64,000 nt of DNA from Dehalococcoidia bacterium (GCA_022820645.1 JAJEFD010000013.1:71308-135307); one strand, 5' to 3'. Positions 16,033 to 25,193 are shown, numbered from the stretch's first letter. Notes: a model not told the origin generated them from the sequence alone. Made by a program: numbers and translations.

Positions 16033-16785
16033 CTACGCGTGCGCGTGGACGTGCGGCGCCGACCCTTCGCGTTCCGCGAGGAACCCCGCGTACGGCGCCT
16101 CCGACAGGTGCAGCGCGTGCCTCTCCGGGTCGCATGCCGCCCCCACCCACACCTCGCCGTCCGCGAAGTGCTCCTTCTTCCACACCGGCACCACGTGCTT
16201 GATGCGGTCGACCACGTACAGCCCCGCGAGGAACGCTTCGAGCCGGTGCGGCGCGCCCGCAGCCACCACGAGGCTCACGTCGCCGATCTCCAGCCGCCCG
16301 ATCCGGTGCCGCGCCGACATCGCCGGAACGTCGAACCGCGCCATCGTCTCTTCGAGGATCTGGCCGATGACCTTCTGCGCCATCCGCTCGTCGGCTTCGT
16401 ACTCCAGCCGCACCACCGGACGCCCGCCCGTGTTGTCGCGCGTCGTCCCCTCGAACGTCACGACTGCGCCGTTGTACGCGCGCTTCACCGCGTCCGCCGT
16501 CTCACCCGCGTCGATCTCCTCCGTACCGACCCACACGTCCACGCCCCCGCTCACCGGCGGATAGAATGCCACGTCGTCGCCGTCGCTGAGCGGGTACGCC
16601 AGGTTGCCGAACTCCTCGTTCACCGCGATGAGGTGCGGCTTGAAGTCGCGCGGCAGCGCGGGCGCCGCGGCCAGCAGCGCCTCGACCGCATCCGCGACGA
16701 CCGCGCCGTCGTTCAGCGGCAGCGTCACCCGGTCGAGCCCTGCGGTCTCGCGGTACGAGGCGTAGAGGCGTATCAGGACGTCCAT
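16033..16785 (-). CDS. molybdopterin synthase MoaD-MoaE fusion protein
   Basis: The N-terminal ~82 aa are ThiS/MoaD-like and end in YPPVSGG. MoaE follows directly (VVTFEGTTRDNTGGRPVVRLEYEA...VPVWKKEHFADGEVWVG). Confidence 0.85.
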   Translation of the reverse strand: MDVLIRLYASYRETAGLDRVTLPLNDGAVVADAVEALLAAAPALPRDFKPHLIAVNEEFGNLAYPLSDGDDVAFYPPVSGGVDVWVGTEEIDAGETADAVKRAYNGAVVTFEGTTRDNTGGRPVVRLEYEADERMAQKVIGQILEETMARFDVPAMSARHRIGRLEIGDVSLVVAAGAPHRLEAFLAGLYVVDRIKHVVPVWKKEHFADGEVWVGAACDPERHALHLSEAPYAGFLAEREGSAPHVHAHA

Positions 16786-16833
16786 GCCCGGATTATAACC
16801 CCGTATAATTCAACGAAAGGAGACCAAACGCCC

Positions 16834-17859
16834 ATGCCCCGACTCGCCCTGCTGACCGCACTCCTCATCACCGCCCTCTTGGCCGCCGCGTGCGGCGCTG
16901 ATCCCGCCCCCACGCCCACAGCCACCCCGACGCCTACCGCGACTCCCGAGCCGCCCGCGGCGACGCCCACCCCGACACCGATTCCGACCGCCACGCCCCG
17001 GCCCGCGACGGCAACACCCGTGCCACCGACTCCCACGCTGGCGCCCACTGCCACGTCGCAGCCGACTGCCACTCCCACACCAACGCCCCTGCCGGAGCCG
17101 CCGACCGAACTCGAAGCGCTCTGCATCACGACAGAGGCCTACGCCTCCGAGTACCTGATGGCCGGGATAGGCCGGGACCCCGTCCCCACCGCATACGACG
17201 CCATCAACGGCGGCGGCTGCGACTTCCCCATCGCCGTCCACGCCGTGCGGATCGAGCTGACCAGCGGCGAGCACTCCTGGACCGCCGATGTCAGGCTCCC
17301 TCAGCCTGCGCGCAACCTCGGCGTGCCCTTCAACGACCTGGACGTTCCTGTCATAAACGCCGATCTGCCGGATGGGCGCTACGCCCGCCGGGTTGCCGCG
17401 CTTGCCTGGGTCCGGAACAGCGAGGTGGAGATGGAGGTCCCCGGCTTCGAGGACGTCTTCCTCGTGCGGGACATCGACTCGCAGCAGGCGCACCTCTTCC
17501 GCAACCGCGGCATATGGGAGCGCAGGGGCCTCGTCAACTACGACTACACCGGCGCGTGGGTCTGCGTCACCTGCGACGAGTTCTACGTCGCCACGGCAGC
17601 AGTGAGCGTGCGGGACGGCGCAGTGACGTCTGTCTCTTCGGCCGACCCGAACATCGCTGTCATCCCCGTGCCGGAGCGCTTCATCCCCATCGCAGGCCTG
17701 TTCGAACTCCTGCAGACGGCCGTCGACCAGGGTGCGCACAACATCGACGTCAACTACGACGACGAGTACTCCTACCCCACGTTCTTCTTCATCAACTACG
17801 ACGACGAGGTCGAGGACGAAGAGCGCGGCTTCACCATCCGCAGCTTCGAGCCGCGCTGA
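16834..17859 (+). CDS. lipoprotein with Pro/Thr-rich linker and C-terminal globular domain (possibly DUF6174-like)
   Basis: The SD aaaggag precedes ATG 16834. MPRLALLTALLITALLAAAC has a lipobox (LAAAC) and is followed by about 70 aa of PT-rich linker. The track ORF start 16039 is an antisense artefact over moaDE. Confidence 0.7.
   Translation: MPRLALLTALLITALLAAACGADPAPTPTATPTPTATPEPPAATPTPTPIPTATPRPATATPVPPTPTLAPTATSQPTATPTPTPLPEPPTELEALCITTEAYASEYLMAGIGRDPVPTAYDAINGGGCDFPIAVHAVRIELTSGEHSWTADVRLPQPARNLGVPFNDLDVPVINADLPDGRYARRVAALAWVRNSEVEMEVPGFEDVFLVRDIDSQQAHLFRNRGIWERRGLVNYDYTGAWVCVTCDEFYVATAAVSVRDGAVTSVSSADPNIAVIPVPERFIPIAGLFELLQTAVDQGAHNIDVNYDDEYSYPTFFFINYDDEVEDEERGFTIRSFEPR
16894..17106 (+). 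repeat. Pro/Thr-rich low-complexity coding repeat (lipoprotein linker)
   Basis: It encodes [70 protein letters not shown]. Confidence 0.85.
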
Positions 17860-18005: not shown

Positions 18006-19370
18006 ATGACACAGCGCGGCATGCGGAAGGAACAGACCCTCTTCGAGCACGTGCGGCGACAGCACGAGGACGAGAACGCCCCGCTCGCGGCCCGCATGCG
18101 CCCCCGCACGCTCCAGGAGTACGTCGGACAGCGCCACCTCCTCGGCGAGGGCCACGTGCTGGAGCGCGCCATCCGCACCGGCCAGGTGCCCTCCATGGTG
18201 CTCTGGGGCCCGCCCGGCACCGGCAAGACCACCCTCGCAAGGCTCGTCGCCGGCCTCACGAAGTCCCACTTCATCGGCGTCTCCGCCGTCACCTCCGGCG
18301 TCGCCGACCTCCGGCAGGCCGTCGAGGAGGCCCGCGAGATACGCGCCACCGAGGACCTCGGCACCATCCTCTTCGTCGACGAGGTGCACCGCTTCAACAA
18401 GGCCCAGCAGGACGCCATCCTCCCCCACGTCGAGAACGGCACCGTCACCTTCATCGGCGCGACCACCGAGAACCCGTCGTTCGAGGTCATCTCCGCGCTC
18501 CTCTCCCGCACCCGCGTCCTCACGCTCCACCCGCTCTCCGACGACGAGATCGCGCACGTGGTGCGTCACGCGCTCGCCGACACCGAGCGCGGGCTCGGCA
18601 ACGAGAACGCGACGCTCGACCCCGACGCGCTGGCCTTCCTGCAGGAGGTCGCCTCCGGCGACGCCCGCGTCGCGCTGAACGGCATCGAGCTCGCGACCGA
18701 GATCGCGCTCCGCCACCCCGACGGCACGAAGCGGATCGACCGCCCGCTGATGGAGGAGGCGCTCCAGCGCCGCGCCCTCCACTACGACAAGGCGGGCGAC
18801 AGCCACTACGACACCATCTCCGCGTTCATCAAGTCGGTGCGCGCGTCGGACCCGGACGCCGCGGTCTACTGGCTCGCGCGGATGCTCGAGGCGGGCGAGG
18901 ACCCGCTCTTCATCGCGCGGCGCATCGTCATCCTCGCGGCGGAGGACGTCGGCATGGCCGACCCGCATGCGCTGCCGGTTGCCGTAGCGGCGCAGCAGGC
19001 CGTCCACTTCGTCGGCCTGCCGGAAGGCGCGATTCCGCTGGCCGAGGCGACGGTCTACCTCGCGACCGCCCCCAAGAGCAATGCCTCATACATGGCGCTG
19101 AACCGCGCGATGGACGAGGTCCGCACCGGGCGCCAGCACCCCGTGCCGCTCCACCTGCGCAACGCCGTCACCGGTCTGATGCGCAACCTCGGCTACGGCG
19201 CGGACTACAAGTACGCCCACGACTACAAGGGGCACTTCGCGGGTCAGCAGAACCTGCCGGACGAGCTCGCGGGCAAGCGCTTCTACGAGCCCGGCGACCA
19301 GGGCTACGAGCAGACCGTCCGCCAGCGGCTCGAGGCCTGGTGGGGGAAGGCGAAGCGCGAGGGTGCTTAG
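18006..19370 (+). CDS. rarA: replication-associated recombination protein A (AAA+ ATPase)
   Basis: LAARMRPRTLQEYVGQRHLLGEG...MVLWGPPGTGKTTLARL (Walker A), ILFVDEVHRFNKAQQD (Walker B), and the MgsA C-terminal domain. Confidence 0.93.
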   Translation: MTQRGMRKEQTLFEHVRRQHEDENAPLAARMRPRTLQEYVGQRHLLGEGHVLERAIRTGQVPSMVLWGPPGTGKTTLARLVAGLTKSHFIGVSAVTSGVADLRQAVEEAREIRATEDLGTILFVDEVHRFNKAQQDAILPHVENGTVTFIGATTENPSFEVISALLSRTRVLTLHPLSDDEIAHVVRHALADTERGLGNENATLDPDALAFLQEVASGDARVALNGIELATEIALRHPDGTKRIDRPLMEEALQRRALHYDKAGDSHYDTISAFIKSVRASDPDAAVYWLARMLEAGEDPLFIARRIVILAAEDVGMADPHALPVAVAAQQAVHFVGLPEGAIPLAEATVYLATAPKSNASYMALNRAMDEVRTGRQHPVPLHLRNAVTGLMRNLGYGADYKYAHDYKGHFAGQQNLPDELAGKRFYEPGDQGYEQTVRQRLEAWWGKAKREGA

Positions 19371-19382
19371 AGGAAGAGTGAG

Positions 19383-20303
19383 ATGCGCTTGCGCGAAGAA
19401 GACATGCTCGCGCCGTTGAGGTCAGGTAACCTGCGCCGCTTCCTCTCCACCTATCGCTGGGAGGTTTGGTTCTTCCTCGGTGTGCCCGTGATCGTTGGAG
19501 CAGTCCGCCAGTTGGTCCGGTGGTTGGTGCACTTTGATAGCAGCACTTGGTATCACGGATCGGACCTAGCGATTGGTGCACTGGGGCTTGCTCTGCTGGC
19601 CGCTGCTTTCCCGCTCGTTCTCCGACGAGGGCGTCAACTCTTGGTTCTGTTATGGGGCTTTGAACTTGTTACGCAGGGCACGAGCATCGCTTTGAAAGGA
19701 TTTGACCTGACCAGGGGAGAACCACCCGCTGGGGTACAGCTGTTCACGATACACACCGTTGGTGATCTGCATTACTTTTCTACGGTCAGTGCTTGGGTCG
19801 GGGTTCTCGCTCTGGTCTGGTTTGCGAGACAGGCCTCGCGCATAAGCACTGCTCATGCATTCCTGTTTGTGGGTTTGTCTTTCGCTACTTCCAGTTTCAG
19901 TCTGCAGCCGTTCGTGTTTGAATCGTCATCAGGATATGTGGACTTATTCGCCGCGATCTATCTGATATCTGCAATAGCCGTGAACATCCTTGCCCTGTGG
20001 GCGATGGTACATCTTGAATCCAAGAGGATGGCTTTCCCTGTAACTGCTACGGTGGGATTGTTTGGAATGGCAATAGGGAAGTCCTTGTTTGGGGTATATG
20101 CCTTGTTCCCGGTACTCGCCGCATCTTACGGATACAGGCTTCTTGAGCAACTGTTTGAGGACTGGGGCGTGATCAGTATGGCGATGTTGGGGCACGCCCT
20201 GCAGTTCGGGTTGTACAACCTCCTCCCACTCCCGCTCATATACCTCGTGCGCGTACGCCGCCGCGCACCAGTCGTATCTGCTCCTGCGTACCGGGAGAGT
20301 TGA
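19383..20303 (+). CDS. hypothetical polytopic membrane protein, low-GC gene
   Basis: 306 aa with about 7-8 hydrophobic segments (WEVWFFLGVPVIVGA, AIGALGLALLAAAFPLVL, ...). G+C is visibly lower than in flanking genes. It starts 13 nt after the rarA stop. No family recognised. Confidence 0.55.
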   Translation: MRLREEDMLAPLRSGNLRRFLSTYRWEVWFFLGVPVIVGAVRQLVRWLVHFDSSTWYHGSDLAIGALGLALLAAAFPLVLRRGRQLLVLLWGFELVTQGTSIALKGFDLTRGEPPAGVQLFTIHTVGDLHYFSTVSAWVGVLALVWFARQASRISTAHAFLFVGLSFATSSFSLQPFVFESSSGYVDLFAAIYLISAIAVNILALWAMVHLESKRMAFPVTATVGLFGMAIGKSLFGVYALFPVLAASYGYRLLEQLFEDWGVISMAMLGHALQFGLYNLLPLPLIYLVRVRRRAPVVSAPAYRES

Positions 20304-20367
20304 TGCATGCCGCATGGGGTCCGTATGCAAGGCGTGGTGGGGAAGGCCCGGCGTGCTCCCCAGCCCC

Positions 20368-20394
20368 GTCATTCCAGCGAAGGCTGGAATCCAG
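20368..20394 (+). repeat. type-A REP hairpin copy
   Basis: gtcattccagcgaaggctggaatccag. Confidence 0.9.
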
Positions 20395-20480
20395 AGCCCG
20401 ACAGCCGCTGACGCAGGGGAATCGTTACCGTTTTCACAATATCTGCGCGAAATCCGCCGGAAATTCCGTGTGAATAGGGA

Positions 20481-20509
20481 TTGCATGTCCGCACATGAGG
20501 GCTTACAGT
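20481..20509 (+). promoter_or_regulatory. candidate sigma70-type promoter (TTGCAT-17 nt-TACAGT)
   Basis: TTGCAT at 20481-20486, a 17-nt spacer, then TACAGT at 20504-20509. Pattern match only. Confidence 0.3.
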
Positions 20510-20612
20510 GGACTCAAGGAGCCTTGCCGGAGGCGGGCGGTCGAGTTCTGCGGAGGCAGACGCGGTCCAGGTGCCGCTCCGGAAGGGTCCGCTGAACGAA
20601 AGGAGGTGCACC

Positions 20613-20684
20613 ATGGGCATACGCGCGGTCTACGTGCTGCATCACCGGTGGCACTTCCCTTGTCCGGCCCTCCCGCCGGCGTAA
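20613..20684 (+). CDS. candidate 23-codon micro-ORF (MGIRAVYVLHHRWHFPCPALPPA)
   Basis: The near-perfect SD GAAAGGAGGTG (20598-20608) lies 6 nt before ATG 20613, and the TAA stop is at 20682-20684. It is too short for the ORF track. An anti-SD CACTTCCCTT (20652-20661) lies inside the ORF. Confidence 0.25.
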   Translation: MGIRAVYVLHHRWHFPCPALPPA

Positions 20685-20851
20685 CGCGCTGACGGAGGAG
20701 GGCAAGCGGAAGCCGGAAGCTCCGTTACACAGAGCAGGCAGAAGCGCCCGGAACGGCTCGACGAAGCCCGAGGCGGCCTGAGTCCGGCAGTGATTGCCGG
20801 GAACGGCAACGGAGCGGAAGGTGAGCCCCGCGCGACGCGGGGCACAAACCA

Positions 20852-20890
20852 GTGCCGGAGCGGCTGGCAAGCCTCTCCGGCACTTTTATT
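20852..20890 (+). terminator. intrinsic (rho-independent) terminator
   Basis: GTGCCGGAG (20852-20860) pairs with CTCCGGCAC (20875-20883). There is an inner GGCT/AGCC extension, and TTTTATT follows. Confidence 0.7.
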
Positions 20891-20893
20891 CTC

Positions 20894-20920
20894 GTCATTC
20901 CCGCGAAAGCGGGAATCCAG
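20894..20920 (+). repeat. type-A REP hairpin copy
   Basis: gtcattcccgcgaaagcgggaatccag, immediately after the terminator T-run. Confidence 0.9.
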
Positions 20921-20967
20921 GAGCGTTCGCCAAGGCACACGGCCACGCGGTGTGGCGGCACTCGCTC

Positions 20968-22029
20968 TTACACCCCGTAGAACGCCGCCGGGTTGTCCTC
21001 CAGGATCTTCCGCGCGACCGTCTCGCTGATGCGTCCCTCCGACGCCCAGCGGCGCACCGCGTCGATCGCGTCCGGCTCCGCCGACGTATCGAAGTGCGAG
21101 TAGTCGGTGCCCATCATCAGGCTGTCCTCGGTGCCGTAGGTCAGGATGTGCGAGATGTCCTCGACCGCGTCCACGGCCACGAAGAACTTGTTCTTCTTGA
21201 AGAGGTCTTCGCCCATCTCGAACTTCCGTATCCAGGAGCGCCGCTTCTTCTCGGCCTTCAGCCGGTCGACCACGTACGGGATCCACGTCGAGCCCGCCTC
21301 GATGAAGCCCCAGCGGATGTTCGGGAACTTGTCCGGCACCTCGTAGAGCACCAGCGCGTGGAACGCGTCCATGATGGGGATGCCGCCCAGGCTGTCGCCG
21401 TGTCCCAGCCGCGCCTCGGTGGGGTTGCCCGCGCCCGTGTGGATGCAGACCGGCATGTCCAGCGCGCTCGCCTCCTCGTACAGCGGGAAGAAGTACGGGT
21501 CGCTGACGCGCCTGCCGTGCTCCAGCCCGCGCTTGAACACACCCACCGCGCCGTTCTCTTTCGCCCAGCGCAGGTAGCTCACCGCCGCGTCCATGTCCAG
21601 CAGCGGCGGGACCGCGACCCACCGCAGCCGTCCCTCCGTCGGGGCGCACTTGCTGGAGACGTAGCGGCTCCAGCTGTCGACCAGCGCGCGCTCCGCCTCC
21701 GGGTTGCCGGTGATGTAGGAGAGGAAGAACGTCGGGTAGATGACGTGCATGTCGACCCCGCGCTCGTCCATGTGCTGCAGCCGTTCGTTCACGTCCAGCA
21801 GCTCGCGCGAGTTGAGCGTCGTGCCGGTCAGCTCGTCGTTGCGGATCATCCGCTGGCGGAGCCTGCCGTCCACGAGCCACCACCTGCTCGCCGAGGCGTC
21901 CATCCCGCCGGGGACCACGCCCTCGGGCGGGGAGATCGTGACGGGGCGGAACCGCGCCGCCGCGCCCTCCATGTACTGCCACGCCTCTTCCGGTTCGTCG
22001 ATGTGGGTATCTGCGTCTATAACGGGCAT
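20968..22029 (-). CDS. amidohydrolase-2 (ACMSD-like) family metal-dependent hydrolase
   Basis: MPVIDADTHIDEPEEAWQYMEG...DMHVIYPT...VCIHTG...GTDYSHFD. The SD gggggagg lies before ATG 22029. Confidence 0.85.
   Translation of the reverse strand: MPVIDADTHIDEPEEAWQYMEGAAARFRPVTISPPEGVVPGGMDASASRWWLVDGRLRQRMIRNDELTGTTLNSRELLDVNERLQHMDERGVDMHVIYPTFFLSYITGNPEAERALVDSWSRYVSSKCAPTEGRLRWVAVPPLLDMDAAVSYLRWAKENGAVGVFKRGLEHGRRVSDPYFFPLYEEASALDMPVCIHTGAGNPTEARLGHGDSLGGIPIMDAFHALVLYEVPDKFPNIRWGFIEAGSTWIPYVVDRLKAEKKRRSWIRKFEMGEDLFKKNKFFVAVDAVEDISHILTYGTEDSLMMGTDYSHFDTSAEPDAIDAVRRWASEGRISETVARKILEDNPAAFYGV

Positions 22030-24140: not shown

Positions 24141-25193
<1,053 letters not shown>

Follow-up and report, generated by a model that had tools for sequence, protein, structure and literature searches.

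The gap between the convergent ends of two open reading frames (ORFs), at positions 20303 (+) and 20968 (-) of a 64,000-nucleotide (nt) stretch of DNA from a Dehalococcoidia bacterium (GCA_022820645.1, JAJEFD010000013.1:71308-135307; hereafter the window), raises the question of what, if anything, it encodes. A preliminary description had proposed that the gap is more than filler made of repetitive extragenic palindromic (REP) elements and that it holds a promoter, a Shine-Dalgarno (SD) sequence, a 23-codon ORF with an internal anti-SD, several hairpins and an intrinsic terminator, which together might be a dual-function small RNA (sRNA), a small-protein gene whose translation is self-sequestered, or a new class of structured RNA. 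The coordinates listed for all of these features were verified in the sequence, and the options receive support from the conservation, covariation and coding pattern described below. The reading we favour, and hold to be probable with some reserve, is that the unit encodes a lineage-specific small-protein RNA with structure-gated translation, a candidate dual-function RNA of SAR202-type Dehalococcoidia located directly downstream of rarA. The conserved unit spans 20408-20885 and, like all of its features given below, is described on the + strand. By blastn, conservation sets in at 20400-20408 in close relatives, and the 3' limit falls directly after the terminator stem. The REP-like palindromic element ATTCCCGCGAAGGCGGGAATCCAG has 15 sites across the window (1755-55730), whose copies at ~20364-20396 and 20891-20920 flank the unit without overlapping it and are absent from the block conserved in relatives; 20400-20890 is unique sequence within the window. 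REP filler was accordingly rejected as the identity of the unit, and the view that the gap holds more than this was sustained.

We found the element in more than 35 contigs of SAR202/Dehalococcoidia, which are uncultured marine Chloroflexota. The convergent amidohydrolase of the window (Amidohydro_2) is 85-98% identical across ~25 Dehalococcoidia/SAR202 metagenome-assembled genomes (MAGs), many of them sponge-derived, and a blastn search with the gap recovered the block from 20400/20408 to 20885 at 72-95% nucleotide identity in 21 of these amidohydrolase loci. A pattern scan of metagenomes added just two contigs, and four further copies came from contigs in which gene callers had placed a spurious antisense ORF over the element; the 118-aa antisense ORF served here only as bait for such contigs. 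At greater distance, each rarA locus examined down to 71% RarA identity carried a copy downstream (L062-L066, with RarA identities of 86, 85, 76, 72 and 71%), and downstream of the rarA genes at RarA identities of 66 and 65% (L067, L068) the element was absent. These copies were analysed in an alignment of 23 sequences (A1) and in a larger alignment of 33 sequences including the divergent members. When the window is compared with the five most distant members of the first set, identity is 29-59% at 4-fold degenerate sites of rarA and the amidohydrolase, 75-82% in the block of SD and ORF, 59-68% overall in the 3' domain, which contains long invariant runs, and only 20-27% in the 5' leader.

The 23-codon ORF (20613-20684, with a TAA stop at 20682-20684) encodes MGIRAVYVLHHRWHFPCPALPPA and is preceded by the SD region GAAAGGAGGTG (20598-20608). 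Within the latter, GGAGG (20602-20606) lies 6 nt before the ATG at 20613 and is invariant in all 33 sequences at constant spacing to the ATG. Of the 33 aligned copies, 32 have an ORF of exactly 23 codons, and L066 has one of 17; the stop occupies one column, as TAA, TGA or TAG depending on the copy, and no frame-breaking indel occurs inside the ORF, with indels being frequent around it. Over the core codons 4-16, pN/pS (Nei-Gojobori proportions, eight divergent representatives) is 0.25 in frame versus 1.54 and 2.04 in the shifted frames. A synonymous/nonsynonymous count on 23 close sequences had been uninformative and became decisive after the divergent members were added. In L018, both changes in the 5' arm of a small hairpin within the ORF are synonymous, though the hairpin is destroyed. 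The peptide core, RAVYVLHHRWHFP, follows the pattern R-A-V/L-Y-x-x-x-H-R/Q/K-W-H-F-P across members: M1, H11, W13 and P16 are invariant in the peptide alignment, R4, A5, Y7, H14 and F15 are nearly so, and residues 2-3 and 17-23 vary, the L066 peptide ending after residue 17. The peptides carry several His, Arg and Pro residues and at most ~5 consecutive hydrophobic residues, and therefore have no hydrophobic stretch of transmembrane length. The comparison shows the ORF to be under purifying selection at the amino-acid level, and the conserved SD, ATG and stop, combined with a pN/pS of 0.25 as opposed to 1.5-2.0, argue that it encodes a small protein. The proposal of a 23-codon ORF with its own SD has thus gained both conservation and a coding substitution pattern in its favour. 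A protein gene on the opposite strand was considered and rejected: the long antisense ORFs are not conserved, and several homologues interrupt the 118-aa one or shift its frame.

The same codons appear to serve a second purpose. RNAalifold, pair counts and minimum free energy (MFE) folding agree upon a hairpin (20602-20658) that would sequester the SD and the start codon. In this structure, GGAGGUG (20602-20608) pairs with CACUUCC (20652-20658, codons 14-16), which is part of the anti-SD CACTTCCCTT (20652-20661) inside the ORF, CCAU (20611-20614), which overlaps the start codon, pairs with GUGG (20648-20651, codons 12-13), and an inner hairpin is formed by GCGCG and CGUGC (20623-20627 with 20633-20637). 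MFE folding of the SD segment yields identical pairing in the window, L018, L064 and L065, and in L066 the SD is occluded by another in-ORF segment. L018 also carries a compensatory change in the SD helix from U-A to C-G, at the cost of replacing His14 with Arg. Hence, sequestration of the SD is kept in every homologue examined, with one compensatory change (L018) and one re-registered partner (L066), and the pairing of an in-ORF anti-SD with the SD, as originally suggested from the window, is borne out by both the alignment and the predicted folds.

Immediately beyond, a second hairpin (20667-20703) presents the stop codon (20682-20684) in its apical loop. Its 5' arm consists of ORF codons 19-22 and its 3' arm is the purine-rich ACGGAGGAGGGC; folded alone, it has a predicted energy of -19.6 kcal/mol. 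Compensatory changes occur at four pairs of its two helices (helices 4 and 5), and L064-L066 retain a hairpin at the position of the stop with a different sequence. The 3' domain (20712-20822) follows, comprising a GCC/GGU helix, a GGAA/GGAA internal loop, the closing helix GCUCCG/CGGAGC and a three-way junction, the latter built from a variable, covarying arm (~20737-20779) and an invariant arm, UCCGGC-loop-GCCGGG (20783-20801). Within this domain, helix 8 switches from AU to GC in 11 of 23 sequences and helix 10 has compensatory changes in L065, and the unpaired segments GGAA, AACGGCAA and GGAA show no variation across the 23 sequences of A1. The internal loop is symmetric, with 5'-GGAA-3' (20715-20718) opposite 5'-GGAA-3' (20816-20819) and helices on both sides, and its central G-A/A-G is retained even in L064 and L065. 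This loop could form a tandem of four stacked G-A/A-G pairs. Internal-loop motifs of the G-A type often bind proteins or metal ions. The domain is followed by the GC-rich hairpin GCCCCGCG-CGA-CGCGGGGC (20825-20843; helix 11), which precedes the terminator and varies in stem sequence with its pairing retained.

Support for these helices comes from their pattern of substitution. Both strands of the window unit fold better than their shuffles (z ~ -3.3 and -3.1), so folding stability does not discriminate by itself. In the 23-sequence alignment, pairing is kept at 98.2% over 69 pairs, and compensatory changes occur at 14 of these, versus 1-6 when the partners were slid by 1-3 columns, and none of 500 shuffles reached the observed value. 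With 33 sequences, RNAalifold predicts 58 pairs, of which 19 carry compensatory changes. Invariant G-U pairs are present, including within the hairpin that pairs the SD, and agree with the + strand being the functional one, and helix 1 in the leader covaries as GC, AU and GU at columns 85:99. Covariation among homologues, a check that the preliminary description had called for, thus reveals helices that change in sequence and keep their pairing. Among the individual hairpins named there, those at 20784-20800 and 20825-20843 are conserved or covarying. The third, at 20547-20560, belongs to a ~25-nt leader insertion found only in the closest relatives of the window (7 of 23 sequences covering the leader) and is for this reason not a core feature. 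Two long-range interactions were also tried and rejected. Kissing of the loop AGUGAUC with AUCAC in the ORF is not supported by the changes in L007, L013, L014 and L018, and a fold-back of the leader GCCGCUCCGG onto the complementary terminator segment CCGGAGCGGC is seen in the window and not conserved in other groups.

How much function beyond coding these structures imply bears directly upon a simpler explanation, namely that the element is a plain small-protein gene, in which the hairpins and the 3' domain do no more than determine how stable the mRNA is, how fast it is translated and where it terminates, and the RNA has no separate function; the element may then also serve as the rarA terminator. 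The strong coding signal would be expected of such a gene, as would a peptide core that outlasts the 3' domain sequence in L064-L066 and a unit that always follows rarA and is closed by a conserved terminator. However, ~200 nt of 3' sequence, three times the length of the ORF, hold invariant unpaired segments while about half of the neighbouring synonymous sites have changed, and a three-way junction with covarying arms seems too elaborate for a stabilising 3' end. On balance, we consider a plain small-protein gene unlikely, though it deserves to be kept in mind.

A different view of the peptide is that H-x-W-H-F-P is an arrest motif and that the ORF is a cis-acting, stand-alone sensor of its own nascent chain instead of a source of functional peptide. 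With a ribosome stalled at Pro16, the anti-SD and the stop hairpin's 5' arm would both be covered, which would hold the RNA open and affect either its stability or 3'-domain activity. The distribution of conservation is in keeping with this: the N-terminus varies, the conserved block breaks off sharply at Pro16, and the tail beyond it is variable and missing in L066. The arrest peptides SecM, TnaC, MifM and VemP show a similar pattern. Moreover, the key residues (W13, F/Y15 and P16) are aromatics and Pro, and their codons coincide exactly with the anti-SD. These points are offset by the lack of a regulated downstream gene, by the fact that the same pattern equally fits a short peptide with functional residues 4-16, and by constraint folds of seven members that mimicked a ribosome on codons 11-20 and gave no shared, conserved alternative helix. 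On the latter grounds, a ribosome-induced conformational switch was rejected. We regard the sensor as rather improbable. A bolder form of the idea, to which we assign a slightly lower probability still, is a free-standing, translation-sensing riboregulator, in which arrest on H-x-W-H-F-P, perhaps in response to a metabolite or translation-state cue, would toggle the RNA and thereby set the level or activity of the 3' three-way-junction domain in trans. Because the arrest codons are the anti-SD and abut the stop hairpin, a stalled ribosome would switch the RNA between its closed and open forms. We know of no arrest peptide that controls an RNA effector in place of a downstream gene.

Returning to the favoured small-protein RNA, its transcript appears to be discrete. 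The putative sigma-70-type promoter (20481-20509) consists of a -35 TTGCAT (20481-20486), a 17-nt spacer and a -10 TACAGT (20504-20509). The pattern TTGnnn-17/18-TAnnnT was found by regular expression at the homologous site in 29 of 32 homologues, and in the other three a match with a 19-nt spacer was recognised by eye. The T, A and last T of the -10 are fixed and its inner positions variable, and some members have a consensus TTGACA -35. At the other end, the intrinsic terminator (20852-20890) has a stem-loop (20852-20883) followed by TTTTATT. Its 13-14 pairs are kept throughout the 33 sequences (100% paired), 3-4 of them through compensatory changes, its core of CCGGAG...CUCCGG is invariant, and in all relatives the conservation of the block stops there. 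A consensus scanner called neither signal: the promoter scored 7/12 matches, and the terminator was missed because its apical part exceeds the loop limit of the scanner. The case for both signals therefore lies in the comparative evidence, which favours the sigma70-like promoter through conservation of its pattern and the terminator through compensatory change, much as had been proposed for each. Transcription would start near 20516, giving an RNA of ~372 nt in the window and ~345 nt in members that lack the 25-nt leader insertion; by comparison across members, promoter and terminator delimit a predicted RNA of ~345-375 nt. The 5' leader (20516-20597) forms a variable GC-rich hairpin in alignment A1. 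The conserved promoter, the conserved terminator and the end of conservation at the latter all point to a short, discrete transcript that starts at its own promoter and ends at its own terminator. An upstream block (20408-20480), conserved in close relatives, occupies the interval from the end of rarA, of which the window retains a remnant, to the -35; its A+T content is comparatively high, and it holds TTTCACAA and the repeat GAAATCCG/GAAATTCCG. This block may be an upstream promoter (UP) element or a transcription factor operator. In L065, a distant member, the corresponding position is taken up by the palindromes TTCACTTGTGAA and CCGTGAACGTCACGG.

When examining the genomic context, it is evident that the upstream gene rarA is the sole constant neighbour of the element, which is co-oriented with and downstream of rarA in each copy whose examined flank extends far enough. 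The gene on the far side varies among a convergent amidohydrolase, a convergent beta-eliminating lyase/aminotransferase, AAA_21 with DUF4276, a Fic module and a giant transglutaminase-like protein, and in the most distant members the downstream neighbour is convergent. In one genome, the element is missing from the amidohydrolase locus (L025) and present at the rarA locus (L062), which lies in another part of that chromosome. These arrangements bear upon the possibility that the unit is a cis-regulatory leader, an attenuator or a riboswitch with a leader peptide, which controls a downstream gene and has been orphaned in the window. A short ORF followed by hairpins and a terminator does resemble an attenuator, and a co-oriented gene follows the element in L003, L015, L018, L060 and L063. 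Nevertheless, the downstream genes differ between loci or converge upon the element, with only rarA being constant, which rules out a leader role for a downstream gene; the unit is also closed by a strong terminator. We find this explanation scarcely credible.

The window itself departs from the ancestral context. The 306-aa membrane protein gene (19383-20303) is an insertion between rarA and the element that is present in the genome of the window only and is shared by no relative; the ancestral upstream neighbour is rarA, a degraded remnant of whose tail (..KAWWGRPG..) persists at ~20330-20347. The initial view of a convergent gap following the membrane protein gene was consequently right about the ends at 20303 and 20968 and needs correction in that the membrane protein gene is not the ancestral neighbour. 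In L004, L012, L019 and L020, where extra DNA likewise separates rarA from the RNA gene, a copy of the rarA 3' end (the last ~20-27 codons) stands beside the RNA gene. Since a duplicated rarA tail adjoins the RNA gene wherever extra DNA intervenes, site-specific or homology-driven insertion of cassettes at the rarA 3' end is suggested. The ancestral order was apparently a DUF6174 protein, rarA, the small-ORF (sORF) RNA and a convergent beta-eliminating lyase/aminotransferase, which correspond, the RNA aside, to the window genes 16039-17859, 18006-19370 and 24141-25193. The RNA and the lyase do not adjoin in the window, where the interval between them holds the amidohydrolase and further genes (20968 to ~24000).

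Searches for known relatives of the element were consistently negative. With Rfam 15, whose families include RNase P, tmRNA, SRP, 6S, riboswitches and Chloroflexi motifs, the element region gave only sub-gathering, chance-like hits at E<=10, the best within the unit being ncS01 at 16.5 bits versus 58, the whole window gave two tRNAs only, and five divergent homologous loci gave no hit at E<=1. A match of the region to an Rfam family, which the preliminary description had singled out as telling against its proposal, was thus found for neither the window nor the divergent homologues, and none of the contrary outcomes that it had listed occurred among those testable. Four divergent peptides matched no family in Pfam-A or NCBIfam even at E<=10, a comparison in which such short queries have little statistical power. 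ARAGORN reported no tRNA or transfer-messenger RNA (tmRNA) in 20000-21200. A tmRNA was rejected, given the invariant GGAGG and ATG, the lack of a tRNA-like domain and the lack of an ARAGORN or Rfam hit. Collections of phages, plasmids and viral contigs contain no similar DNA, and no second copy of the peptide exists in the window or in any locus; a mobile-element origin was rejected for these reasons. Outside of the unit, the Pseudomonas sRNA P10 had a weak Rfam match (21.4 bits versus a gathering score of 37, E 0.025) at 21021-21087 (+) inside the amidohydrolase coding region, which is most likely a chance hit in GC-rich sequence. On comparative evidence, the unit can be regarded as established as a conserved, single-copy, vertically inherited element that is constrained both as coding sequence and as RNA structure, and we rate it as a family matching no described RNA or protein family and as a new architectural variant among the structured RNAs that carry small ORFs.

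The same observations weigh upon whether the unit might be a type I toxin-antitoxin-like locus, in which a closed, structured mRNA encodes a toxic peptide under the control of an antisense RNA. Occlusion of the SD by an in-ORF anti-SD within a structured ~370-nt mRNA with its own promoter would suit such a locus, and accessory genes, including the Fic module and AAA_21 with DUF4276, tend to insert alongside it. Some of the general features of type I systems against which we judge this are common background knowledge. The peptide, however, lacks a hydrophobic stretch of transmembrane length, and the locus is single-copy and strictly syntenic down to a RarA identity of 71%, unlike the patchy, multi-copy pattern of type I systems; a non-hydrophobic peptide from a single-copy locus is not a typical type I toxin. 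There is also no phage, plasmid or viral copy. No promoter-like site for an antisense RNA passed the scanner on either strand, which is weak evidence because the scanner missed the sense promoter too. Taken together, we judge a type I locus to be very improbable. Regarding the accessory genes themselves, those found directly downstream of the RNA terminator in different genomes are an AAA_21 ATPase with DUF4276 (twice), a small ORF with a Fic-domain protein, and a transglutaminase/HEAT-repeat protein of more than 2400 aa (L015 5096-6876; L061 124-1841; L063 4928-5550; L060 1-3900). In this respect, the convergent gap acts as an insertion hotspot for cargo of the defence or toxin-antitoxin-like kind.

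In the small-protein RNA that we favour, several steps can be envisioned. Firstly, the 23-residue peptide would be the coding output of the unit. Secondly, its translation would be gated by the RNA fold, with the SD and AUG occluded through the codons for W13-H14-F15-P16. The folded, full-length RNA would be translationally closed, and ribosomes would presumably load either co-transcriptionally, before the anti-SD has been made, or upon opening of the hairpin. Thirdly, the conserved ~200-nt 3' domain would have a separate role at the RNA level, such as the binding of a protein or another RNA, or the control of stability. A peptide combined with a separate role of the 3' domain would make the molecule a dual-function RNA. 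The invariant unpaired segments of the 3' domain lend indirect support to a possible RNA-level regulation of targets. Several considerations weigh against this reading. Transcript ends, translation and abundance are all deduced from sequence, and no target was identified for either the peptide or the RNA. Invariance of the W-H-F-P codons could stem from the peptide, the anti-SD or both. The most conserved 3' helices never vary in our sample and are accordingly supported by invariance and not by covariation, and L064-L066, the three most distant members, have diverged over much of the 3' domain sequence and kept the peptide core. For these two reasons, the RNA-level function could be limited to stability and termination. 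Furthermore, the constraint folds with a ribosome placed on codons 11-20 offered no consistent alternative structure, and the family has been seen solely in MAGs and metagenome contigs of one uncultured clade.

Comparison with known systems places the element near several of them and within none. Arrest leader peptides (SecM, TnaC, MifM, VemP and SpeFL) share an aromatic-rich block ending in Pro, a dispensable tail and an mRNA structure that overlaps the putative stall site. Unlike these, the element has no downstream regulated cistron, its similarity to them is limited to short chance resemblances, and arrest is a conjecture. It resembles tmRNA (SsrA) in size (~350-400 nt) and in having a frame that ends Ala-rich, with its stop in a hairpin and several structured elements after it, whereas it differs in its canonical SD and AUG and in its lack of a tRNA-like domain. 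Type I toxin mRNAs (hok, tisB; PMC8309996) are likewise highly structured, measure a few hundred nucleotides and occlude the SD of a tiny ORF, which leaves the full-length RNA translationally inert. Set against these and the general features of type I systems (PMC8309996), the element encodes a non-hydrophobic peptide, showed no antisense partner and occupies a single-copy locus that is inherited vertically, with strong sequence conservation. The element is probably closest in its working, by analogy, to dual-function sRNAs such as Spot 42/SpfP (PMC8916003). Like SgrS/SgrT, RNAIII/delta-haemolysin, SR1/SR1P, Spot 42/SpfP (PMC8916003) and AzuCR, it is predicted to be a short RNA with its own promoter, an intrinsic terminator and a tiny ORF, and it has a structured segment outside of the ORF that is conserved beyond a simple untranslated region. 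It has no sequence or structural homology to any of these and no known base-pairing seed or target. It is further distinguished by ORF codons that form an anti-SD, by a stop codon in a hairpin loop, by its residence in uncultured Chloroflexota and by an RNA activity that is putative.

Two larger-scale features of the window were observed as well. The REP elements are on the + strand in all copies up to 23963 and on the - strand in all copies from 29773 onward, and the GC skew of the window is negative to ~24 kb and positive from ~28 kb, its sign changing in the same interval. This combination could reflect a replication origin or terminus, or merely a changed gene orientation. No DnaA-box cluster was found near the switch of the GC skew.

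SAR202 Chloroflexota, from sponges and the ocean, are abundant but uncultured. To our knowledge, only about a dozen bacterial RNAs both encode a peptide and act as RNA, nearly all of them from model Proteobacteria and Firmicutes, and our literature search found no described sRNA for SAR202 Chloroflexota. Such elements are rare and undescribed in the Chloroflexota, and the evidence for the reality of this one is strong. Standard annotation misses the gene entirely, as gene callers either skip it or place spurious antisense ORFs across it. In public gene calls for L058, L060, L061, L062 and L064, spurious ORFs of 89-196 aa without a Pfam match lie opposite the RNA gene, and the real 23-codon ORF is never called. 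These antisense mis-calls are an annotation artefact that could be used for finding other hidden structured RNAs in high-GC genomes. The element is a well-supported new family that joins an sORF to a structured RNA, as its coding signature, its covarying helices and its strict synteny attest. It carries two codes on the same 12 nucleotides, its most conserved residues, W-H-F-P, doubling as the anti-SD, and so provides a compact test case for the co-evolution of peptide and RNA constraints and for the structure-gated translation of very small ORFs.

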